The translations under genes were made by a program, and so were the position numbers. The notes below the pieces were generated by a model, which worked only from the letters and a program-made list of their open reading frames with translations, had not been told where the DNA came from and made no database searches. From sequence record MH791400.1: a stretch of 64,000 nt of DNA; one strand, written 5' to 3'. How positions within the stretch are numbered: the first letter of the stretch is position 1; each line of letters opens with the position of its first letter. Source of the DNA: Escherichia phage EcSzw-2. This document shows positions 52,054 to 52,303 of the stretch, in pieces.

Positions 52054-52259
52054 ATTCTTATCTTTAAAGGCTCTCTTAGAAAACCCTTAAAGATGCCCAC
52101 ATTATTAATCATACCGTGGGCGAGTACGCCAAATTCTTTGATGAGGGGTTGGAAGACCTCACTGGTGTTTAGCCTATTAAGCTACTGCCAGAAAAACATT
52201 ATCGTTTGCATTTATTTTAGTTTGCAAAAATAGACGCTACGCTAACGAAAACTAAGGTT

Positions 52260-52288
52260 ACTATAAAGTGGTCACATCTGAATGTCAA
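52260..52288 (-). promoter_or_regulatory. sigma70-like promoter on minus strand inside tRNA array: TTGACA - 17 bp - TATAGT
   Basis: Minus-strand TTGACA (reverse complement of 52283-52288) and TATAGT (52260-52265) with 17-bp spacer; would start transcription near 52252 into a ~200-nt spacer and tRNA-Arg(UCU). Confidence 0.5.
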
Positions 52289-52303
52289 CAACTTTATCAA
52301 ATT

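Follow-up and report, generated by a model that had tools for sequence, protein, structure and literature searches.

A predicted phage RNA gene derived from the mRNA-like portion of tmRNA, with a 5' arm complementary to the host tmRNA, in the tRNA array of Escherichia phage EcSzw-2

Between two transfer RNA (tRNA) genes of Escherichia phage EcSzw-2 (sequence record MH791400.1) lies a segment, positions 52255-52054 of the minus strand, which is predicted from its sequence and conservation to encode, as a phage gene, a non-coding RNA about 200 nucleotides (nt) long. This RNA is a putative evolutionary derivative of the messenger-like (mRNA-like) and pseudoknot portion of transfer-messenger RNA (tmRNA), the RNA of trans-translation, which is the main bacterial ribosome-rescue pathway and a drug target. 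The window, i.e. the whole stretch of 64,000 nt that was analysed and to which positions refer unless another locus is named, represents a Felixounavirus genome, and over 51900-52500 it matches Escherichia phage EcSzw_1 with 100% identity. At the conservative minimum, the segment is a predicted member of a new family of structured RNAs, related to tmRNA and devoid of the tRNA-like domain. That it is a functional tmRNA-derived RNA gene we consider very probable, and we think it probable that the RNA acts through pairing with the host tmRNA. A wider claim, that a widespread class of phage RNAs parasitises ribosome rescue by pairing across the host resume codon, silencing the host template and substituting its own, is tentative, and our judgement leans somewhat against it. 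The RNA comprises the following elements, listed from 5' to 3':

52224..52254, minus strand: 5' antisense arm UAGUUUUCGUUAGCGUAGCGUCUAUUUUUGC, complementary to E. coli tmRNA nt 77-106
52210..52223, minus strand: linker and resume element AAACUAAA-AUAAAU, in which U85 and A86 of E. coli have their counterparts in U at -5 and A at -4
52177..52209, minus strand: tag frame GCA AAC GAU AAU GUU UUU CUG GCA GUA GCU UAA, identified by the Rfam alignments and 23 homologues
52162..52191, minus strand: helix-5-like hairpin with outer helix CUGG/CCAG, inner helix UAGCU/GGCUA and the stop codon in the loop
52129..52161, minus strand: pseudoknot A, with stem 1 UGAGG/CCUCA and stem 2 formed by the loop CCAA with UUGG
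52095..52128, minus strand: pseudoknot B, with stem a CGUACU/GGUAUG, stem b GCCCAC/GUGGGC and the conserved loop UGAUUAAUAAU
52060..52094, minus strand: terminal hairpin AUCUUUAAGGG...CCUUUAAAGAU, present only in the Felixounavirus/Suspvirus form

The elements scored on an alignment of 23 sequences were the helix-5-like hairpin, which has two parts, and two H-type pseudoknots in succession. In this alignment 90.3% of the cells are paired, as opposed to 33-41% with slid partners, 15 pairs change on both sides, and the covariation score of 0.308 (at most 0.104 for slid partners) was reached by none of 500 shuffles. The outer and inner helices of the hairpin are paired in 94.6% and 85.3% of the cells, respectively, with two covarying pairs each. 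In pseudoknot A, both-side changes are found in three of the five pairs of stem 1 and in all four pairs of stem 2 (CCAA/UUGG), 96.7% of whose cells are paired. Stem a of pseudoknot B is 97.1% paired, with two covarying pairs, while stem b, read by eye, occurs in eight different complementary versions among the homologues and is 70.7% paired on the MAFFT columns, a value lowered by indels. A covariance model built from the same alignment (R1) finds a single copy in the window (52093-52255, 156 bits, E = 1e-30) and one copy within the 50 kb scanned of the Aeromonas phage pAh6-C, and it matches E. coli ssrA at nt 80-137 (25.3 bits, E = 0.003). In the opposite direction, ARAGORN at its default and Rfam at its gathering thresholds detect nothing in the spacer; the E-value scan against Rfam, a step that an earlier note on this DNA had suggested, returned tmRNA families below threshold. 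On the RNA itself these were RF04321 (tmRNA_permuted; 34.6 bits against a gathering threshold of 47, partly through the T arm of tRNA-Ile), RF00023 (tmRNA; 15.1 bits against 47) and RF01849 (14.0 bits against 50), and beta_tmRNA scores 20.2 bits on one homologue; the scan aligned AUAAAUGCAAACGAUAAUGUUUUUCUGGCAGUAGCUUAA to the tag region of tmRNA. With relaxed thresholds, ARAGORN reports the same tag together with a match to the resume consensus in most loci, given for the window RNA as aataaatgcaaacgataa. The reciprocal matches, of R1 to ssrA and of the Rfam models to the RNA, therefore support homology with tmRNA.

The earlier note had described the segment as a hairpin-rich, structured leader of about 200 nt. 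Strong structure is borne out by folding: the minimum free energy (MFE) of the 203-nt spacer is -57.7 kcal/mol against -41.8 +/- 4.3 for shuffled sequences (z = -3.7), and none of 200 shuffles was as good. The hairpin GCCCAC...GTGGGC that it gave as an example also exists, at coordinates that have to be shifted by one base, to 52121-52095 of the minus strand. What did not hold is the view of the segment as a generic leader or spacer, since the score of R1 and the covariation point to a conserved RNA gene.

Read from the GCA at 52209, the tag frame gives ANDNVFLAVA followed by a stop, where E. coli has the tag ANDENYALAA. Neither an AUG nor a GUG start is present; an in-frame UAG lies 10 codons upstream and a second stop, also UAG, follows at 52176-52174. 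Canonical translation was rejected because there is no start codon and no Shine-Dalgarno sequence, and the overlapping +1 mini-frame MQTIMFFWQ because it is not conserved. Conservation of the tag frame is of the coding type, its changes being those of a translated frame. It is 10 codons long, plus the stop, in 23/23 homologues, which encode 13 distinct peptides matching AN[DE]xxx[LM]xxA; variation of codons 1-3 and 10 is confined to third positions, Leu7 is encoded by CUG or UUG, and the frame closes with UAA in 21 copies and with UAG and UGA in one copy each. An A at -4 is invariant (23/23) and followed by a GCN resume codon; in tmRNA, A86 is the chief determinant of the frame (PMC2481249). 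With the one-piece tmRNA of Enterobacteria (RF00023) the phage RNA shares the A-rich upstream element, the U at -5, the A at -4 and the GCA resume codon, as well as an AND...-type tag of 10 codons whose last residues are small and hydrophobic; in both, a helix-5-like hairpin holds the stop codon in its loop, and H-type pseudoknots come after it. It differs from one-piece tmRNA in length (about 200 nt instead of 363), in the number of downstream pseudoknots (two instead of three), in the absence of an acceptor stem, G3:U70, T arm and CCA end, and, unlike any tmRNA, in having a 5' arm that is antisense to the tmRNA of the host.

In this arm, 26 of the first 32 nt of the window RNA form colinear Watson-Crick pairs with nt 77-106 of E. 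coli tmRNA, a region that covers the end of pseudoknot 1 (PK1), the A-rich upstream element, U85/A86, the resume codon G90-A92 and tag codons 3-6. Read as its reverse complement, the invariant 5' motif reproduces nt 97-106 (tag codons 3-6) exactly, and a second conserved block (GCGUCUAUUUUU in the window, GCGACU... in most others) complements nt 80-91 (AAAAAUAGUCGC), spanning U85, A86 and the resume codon. Exact or one-mismatch antisense matches in the MG1655 ssrA locus were found at nt 97-106, where 0.00 are expected, and at nt 80-91, where 0.01 are expected. Duplex energies were calculated with RNAduplex for tmRNA nt 64-125, as unrestricted runs on the whole tmRNA gave meaningless long-range pairings. 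The duplex of the window RNA with the host region has -25.8 kcal/mol, compared to -12.6 +/- ~3 for shuffled targets (z = -4.5) and -13.8 for the equivalent region of the RNA itself. All 23 RNAs reach -23 to -36 kcal/mol with the host region (z from -3.5 to -8; at most one of 200 shuffles as good), and only -11 to -22 kcal/mol with their own equivalent region. GUUUUCG is invariant in 23/23 sequences and GCG nearly so, the pairing blocks being the most conserved letters of the 5' region (the arms of other homologues read, for instance, GCUUCUAUUUUU in L004 and GCGUCUGUUUUU in L005). These blocks exhibit no covariation in cis, whereas the genuine cis helices covary, and the combination of conserved pairing letters with lack of cis covariation is therefore the signature of a trans-acting seed. 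Besides, the RNA's own resume region departs from that of the host where self-annealing is thereby prevented: the -1 triplet is AAU and not GUC, and codons 3-6 differ. We also considered GUUUUCG as a homologue of the D-loop of tmRNA (GGAUUCGAC), and dropped this assignment because colinear antisense pairing with host nt 77-106 gives a better account of the motif.

By its sequence, the conserved unit is a tmRNA minus its tRNA half, and as such the predicted mirror image of the molecule of mycobacteriophage DS6A that comprises only the tRNA-like domain. Default ARAGORN detects in the RNA no tRNA-like domain (7-bp acceptor stem with G3:U70, T arm, (N)CCA), and the 'permuted tmRNA' calls made by ARAGORN under relaxed settings borrow the T arms of neighbouring tRNA-Met or tRNA-Ile genes or random sequence. 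A scan for acceptor stems and T arms found only ordinary tRNAs and a 120-nt element with U3-A70, and in pAh6-C, 50.0 of whose 53.7 kb were scanned, there are the RNA and two ordinary tRNAs but no acceptor candidate, so that the searches of the flanks, the relaxed ARAGORN runs, the acceptor/T-arm scan and pAh6-C together yield no consistent candidate. As regards the coding piece of a two-piece tmRNA, we found no permuted gene, no acceptor piece upstream and no 5' acceptor or P2 strand. The upstream neighbour of the RNA in other phages is a promoter, a coding sequence (CDS) or a processing hairpin, and its 3' neighbour is another tRNA, a tRNA-like element or an intrinsic terminator; because promoters or the processing hairpin adjoin the GUUUUCG motif, there is no room for a 5' acceptor strand. 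In phage UTK0002 (L008) the RNA ends in an intrinsic terminator, and in L008 and L005 it has its own terminator or no tRNA nearby. A phage-encoded acceptor RNA is thus not needed, given the lack of a candidate in pAh6-C and the terminator in L008. Without a tRNA-like domain the RNA could therefore neither be aminoacylated nor enter the ribosome on its own.

Unusual tRNA-like elements are nevertheless found in the vicinity of the RNA in some phages. The 120-nt element follows directly after tRNA-Arg, at 51850-51969 (minus strand) of the window and at 3018-3137 of L012, and is conserved in Suspvirus. It has the acceptor stem GGUCAAG/CUUGACU, the T arm GUAGG-UUCGACU-CCUAC, discriminator G and CCA, while an insert of about 85 nt replaces the D and anticodon arms, and it is missed by default ARAGORN and by Rfam. 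An analogous insert-bearing element is present in Erwinia phage SunLIRen (L004 795-961). In Felix-O1-like phages, as seen in BPS17S6 (L153 1132-1213), the place of tRNA-Arg(UCU) downstream of the RNA is taken by an 82-nt tRNA-like element without a D arm, with a UCU anticodon-type loop and with G3:U70, A73 and an encoded CCA, i.e. an acceptor of alanine identity; it is likewise missed by tRNA finders. The Felix O1 genome paper remarks on the lack of an AGA tRNA (PMC3185647).

A blastn search with the central 120 nt found the RNA in 622 phage records from unrelated groups and in 338 of 5,426 complete E. coli genomes, where it resides not in chromosomal ssrA but in lambdoid prophages, between Q and the lysis genes, and in phage-plasmids of about 110 kb. 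The 23 distinct homologues that we read share common ancestry and come from Felix-like and Erwinia Ounavirinae, from siphoviruses of Klebsiella, Shigella and Aeromonas, from a T5-like Klebsiella phage, from N4-like (IME11, UTK0002) and Vi01-like (Maynard, UPM 2146) phages, from SSU5, P1 and HK620, and from a Rosenbergiella prophage. In P1 (L145, NC_005856 ~68,880-69,060) the tag reads ANDDLMMVAA and the RNA is situated in the leader of the C1-controlled ban operon, past the terminator of the dicF-like region and before tRNA-Asn. In HK620 (L146, ~15,830-16,000) the tag reads ANEEMYLAVA and the RNA lies between pR'/qut and the terminator tQ, inside the pR'-tQ late leader transcript. None of the 23 homologues is annotated as an RNA; some records place 'hypothetical protein' CDSs there, and the open reading frames (ORFs) annotated over the region are short, not conserved and on either strand. 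A pattern scan of IMG/VR for the resume-plus-tag motif returned only chance matches in coding sequence, and among the matches listed for a scan of genome contigs with GTTTTCG-N(22-52)-AAATGCAAAYGA nearly all are due to chance, the only real one being from Rosenbergiella nectarea (L095). Two censuses of tmRNA that scanned viral genomes report only the tmRNAs of mycobacteriophages and of Bacillus phage G, with P1, HK620, Felix O1 and all other members of the present family absent. We found no description of the RNA family in literature on tag peptides, 'tmRNA-like' phage RNAs, phage two-piece tmRNA, anti-tmRNA or RNAs of the P1 ban leader, and found no annotation, Rfam family or paper for it; apparently it has escaped annotation despite its presence in such classic phages as P1, HK620, Felix O1 and SSU5 and in lambdoid prophages of pathogenic E. 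coli.

Long members of the family have extra modules on either side of the core (L001 1627-1860; L014 2375-2445 and 2628-2815; L146 1075-1150 and 1325-1520; L149 680-760). One module consists of an extended stem, GGUAAGAGCAUU...AGUGCUCUUUCC, with a canonical T arm inside it in some cases, and has the look of a tRNA-like element for processing; the second, a domain of the form GUUGUGG(UG)-hairpins-CCACAAC, ends in NCCA in some phages. The possibility that the long variants are circular permutations with GUUGUGG/CCACAAC as the acceptor stem was dropped, as the modules are local hairpins on either side of the core.

The minus-strand tRNA array of the window comprises 24 ARAGORN calls and a few extra genes found via Rfam. 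The segment is bounded by tRNA-Ile(GAU) at 52304-52379, its upstream neighbour, which is canonical (66 bits), and by tRNA-Arg(UCU), and both ARAGORN and Rfam place no tRNA between them, as the earlier note had said. The features that would delimit the transcript are:

52283..52288, minus strand: -35 hexamer TTGACA, the same in Suspvirus mistaenkt (L012) and in BPS17S6 (L153), equal to 'P45' of Felix O1
52260..52265, minus strand: -10 hexamer TATAGT after a 17-bp spacer; the start site is expected at about 52253/52252
51977..52053, minus strand: tRNA-Arg(UCU); maturation of its 5' end by RNase P would leave the RNA with a 3' end at about 52054

The two hexamers and their spacing are exactly as that note had given them, and its reading of them as a near-consensus sigma70 promoter within the array agrees with a match of 11/12, which makes this the top promoter-like site within 46-56 kb, and with its conserved position in relatives. 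By itself, however, the hexamer match is not above chance: on both strands of the 64-kb window three sites score at least 11/12, against 2.2 +/- 1.4 in Markov-shuffled sequence, and in 46-56 kb there are 16 promoter-like sites where 19.4 are expected. The promoter is credible because it is conserved across phages, and not because of the hexamer match. The -35 and -10 hexamers are identical in L012 and L153, and in ten phages sigma70-like promoters end 5-15 nt ahead of the GUUUUCG motif (among them L001, L004, L006, L011, L151, L152, L010, L013 and L148), while in other phages a processing hairpin, ...CUCUUUCC(G)AUAG, directly adjoins it. As a prediction the promoter is real, and it is already in the literature: the Felix O1 genome paper predicts 'P45', TTGACA(17)TATAGT, 16 nt past tRNA-Ile (PMC3185647). 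Downstream there are 17 more tRNA genes on the same strand. The suggestion of a second promoter for the distal half of the array stands insofar as read-through may supply the distal tRNAs as a by-product; it does not account for the conservation of the segment, as the RNA is conserved in phages without a nearby tRNA. The other suggestion made there, that the promoter could produce a small RNA, agrees with what we predict, namely a promoter followed by a conserved, discrete RNA gene.

The array opens with tRNA-Pro (53756), and upstream of this gene there are other promoter-like sites of the TTGACA type with a match of 10/12 (53905-53877, 53813-53784 and 55409-55380, minus strand), one of which overlaps a terminator-like hairpin at 53913-53882. 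In BPS17S6 (L153 ~830-945) a hairpin-forming insertion of about 88 nt, with the long inverted repeats AAUAUGUACAA...UUGUACAUAUU, separates the conserved promoter from the 5' motif of the RNA, and AUAG/UUUUCG is restored at its 3' edge.

These features can be combined into a model that we propose tentatively and rate only just short of an even chance, in which the RNA would dock on the host tmRNA, mask the host tag template and offer its own as a 'coding piece' in trans. Transcription would start from the P45-type promoter TTGACA-17-TATAGT, and RNase P acting at tRNA-Arg would probably trim the 3' end, a role that elsewhere would fall to another tRNA, a tRNA-like hairpin or a terminator. Pairing would begin on host tag codons 3-6, seeded by the single-stranded 5' end (UAGUUUUCGU), and the duplex would extend to the edge of host PK1, masking the host resume codon and tag template. 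The phage strand would leave the duplex beside PK1, with its own resume element 14 nt further on (the host resume codon comes 11 nt after PK1). The tRNA-like domain of the host (Ala-tmRNA) would then, with SmpB, deliver the phage template, and stalled ribosomes would add (A)ANDNVFLAVA in place of (A)ANDENYALAA, the outcome being a two-piece tmRNA, joined in trans, whose acceptor belongs to the host and whose coding piece belongs to the phage. More speculatively, pairing with tmRNA might also unmask the phage resume region in the manner of a toehold switch. In natural two-piece tmRNAs (Rfam RF04321, RF01849, RF01850) a tag template joined to the acceptor solely by base pairing does work. Structure around the resume codon is known to inactivate tmRNA (PMC2481249), and antisense oligonucleotides to tmRNA suppress trans-translation and release from stalled ribosomes in vitro (PMC3384345).

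Several points weigh against this model. The antisense blocks are one inherited feature, and the 23 sequences consequently do not represent 23 independent events. In short forms, part of block 2 also complements the RNA's own resume region and the MFE fold pairs the two, so that a role of block 2 in cis is possible. With the Salmonella tag, ANDETYALAA, block 1 would have a single mismatch, although GUUUUCGU is retained in Salmonella phages. We know of no precedent for a ribosome using a template tethered by a helix to tmRNA at such a position; a 26-bp side arm may be incompatible with the path of tmRNA on the ribosome, and the same duplex could merely trigger cleavage by RNase III or block tagging. 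Finally, the swap would exchange one Ala-rich tag for another, with no evident benefit for the phage.

An explanation along the lines of such cleavage or blocked tagging, in which the RNA is only an antisense inhibitor that anneals and stops tagging and trans-translation by occlusion or through RNase III, while the frame and pseudoknots are an untranslated, inherited scaffold or decoy, is in our opinion rather unlikely. It would draw on the same extended complementarity to host nt 77-106 and on the effect of anti-tmRNA oligonucleotides, which are antisense to the same tmRNA region and block release from stalled ribosomes in vitro (PMC3384345). A partial tmRNA kept by a phage is also known: the tRNA-like-domain remnant of DS6A is thought to inhibit the host tmRNA, and phage antagonism of tmRNA therefore has precedent. 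Among phage-borne, tmRNA-derived genes (full tmRNAs in Bxz1-like mycobacteriophages and Bacillus phage G, and DS6A), none has an antisense arm, and DS6A retains only the tRNA-like domain where the RNA family described here retains only the other half. Trans-acting antisense small RNAs (sRNAs) and phage-encoded anti-sRNAs, for example AgvB and AsxR of enterohaemorrhagic E. coli (EHEC) prophages (PMC4104026), offer a further comparison: the RNA described here, too, is encoded by phages and prophages, is complementary to a host RNA over an extended stretch, and has a 5' seed that is conserved and single-stranded. From such antisense RNAs the present one differs in that its target is tmRNA itself and that it carries a copy of the function it would mask, i.e. 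a resume element and a tag frame. Pure inhibition leaves unexplained this coding signature, with its third-position variation, constant 10 codons, three stops, invariant A at -4 and GCN, as well as the divergence of the RNA's own resume region exactly where self-pairing is avoided; of the models that also account for the translated-looking tag, the template swap is the simplest. Still less probable is that the RNA, as a protein-free decoy and with no base pairing to tmRNA, titrates SmpB, S1, RNase R or some other factor that binds tmRNA. The RNA does copy the surfaces of tmRNA that contact such factors (resume element, helix 5, pseudoknots), but the antisense arm would have no explanation; we consider this alternative very improbable, together with its minor variant, a small protein gene, for which speak the CDSs put on the region in several GenBank records and against which speak their short, unconserved ORFs on either strand and the lack of a start codon in the only conserved frame.

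It is improbable, too, though less so than a decoy, that the RNA serves as coding piece in a true two-piece tmRNA and that another phage RNA, such as the 120-nt element at 51850-51969, provides the acceptor. Coding pieces of two-piece tmRNAs (Alpha- and Betaproteobacteria, cyanobacteria; RF04321, RF01849, RF01850) likewise have the tag template on a separate, base-paired RNA, and the two-piece models give the best Rfam similarity to the phage RNAs. Odd tRNA-like elements adjoin the RNA in the window, in L012, L004 (795-961), L002 (~1260-1327) and L003 (~1902-1968), and in BPS17S6 the D-arm-less element with G3:U70, A73 and CCA comes after it. These elements, however, are not conserved across the family; the one in the window has U3-A70 and no G3:U70, there is none near the RNA in pAh6-C (50 kb scanned), UTK0002, HK620 or the O26 prophage, and between the RNA and the 120-nt element no convincing complementarity was found. 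Natural two-piece tmRNAs, moreover, stem from one permuted gene that yields both pieces, the coding piece contributing the 5' acceptor strand and pairing through P2 and the acceptor stem, whereas the phage RNA has no 5' acceptor strand, promoters adjoin its GUUUUCG, its gene has no acceptor piece, and the proposed partner is the complete one-piece tmRNA of the host, paired at the tag template. The least credible alternative, to which we give next to no weight, is an ordinary internal promoter with a functionless segment as the processed leader or spacer of the distal tRNAs. The position of the promoter before 17 same-strand tRNA genes would suit it, and the Felix O1 authors list the site simply as a promoter (PMC3185647). 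It is contradicted by conservation beyond the tRNA array, in the 622 phage records, the prophages and phage-plasmids of 338 E. coli genomes, P1 and HK620, by the covariation and the 156-bit model score, and by copies with their own terminator or no nearby tRNA.

What is known of the role of trans-translation during phage infection comes, to our knowledge, only from scattered genetic work, for example with the lambda-immP22 hybrid and Mu. If the RNAs do bind tmRNA, phages would routinely block or re-programme ribosome rescue and tagging, which would be a natural answer to the question of how viruses handle the truncated mRNAs that they create in quantity. A template swap, if true, would be a natural case of in-trans retargeting of tmRNA and could serve as a template for engineered tag-swapping or anti-tmRNA RNAs; if confirmed, it would constitute a categorically new kind of host-virus RNA interaction. 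The family itself merits an Rfam entry and a place in phage annotation pipelines, as some records hold spurious CDSs at its loci.

Further observations concern other parts of the tRNA array. Two genes recognised by Rfam are missed by ARAGORN, namely tRNA-Glu(UUC) at 53601-53672 (minus strand, 53.7 bits) and a type-II tRNA-Tyr(GUA)-like gene at 53128-53208 (minus strand, 22.8 bits), the latter of which is labelled 'pseudo' in Felix O1 (PMC3185647). Between the tRNA genes there is also a repeat family of the form CAGAAGACC-N(46-58)-GGTCTGG with complementary ends, with three copies of the exact pattern (52904-52977, 53371-53432 and 53527-53590, minus strand) where none is expected. A fourth, longer copy of the CAGAAGACC type, at about 52765-52890 of the minus strand, encloses a degenerate tRNA-like sequence (52810-52873, 30.6 bits with the Rfam tRNA model).

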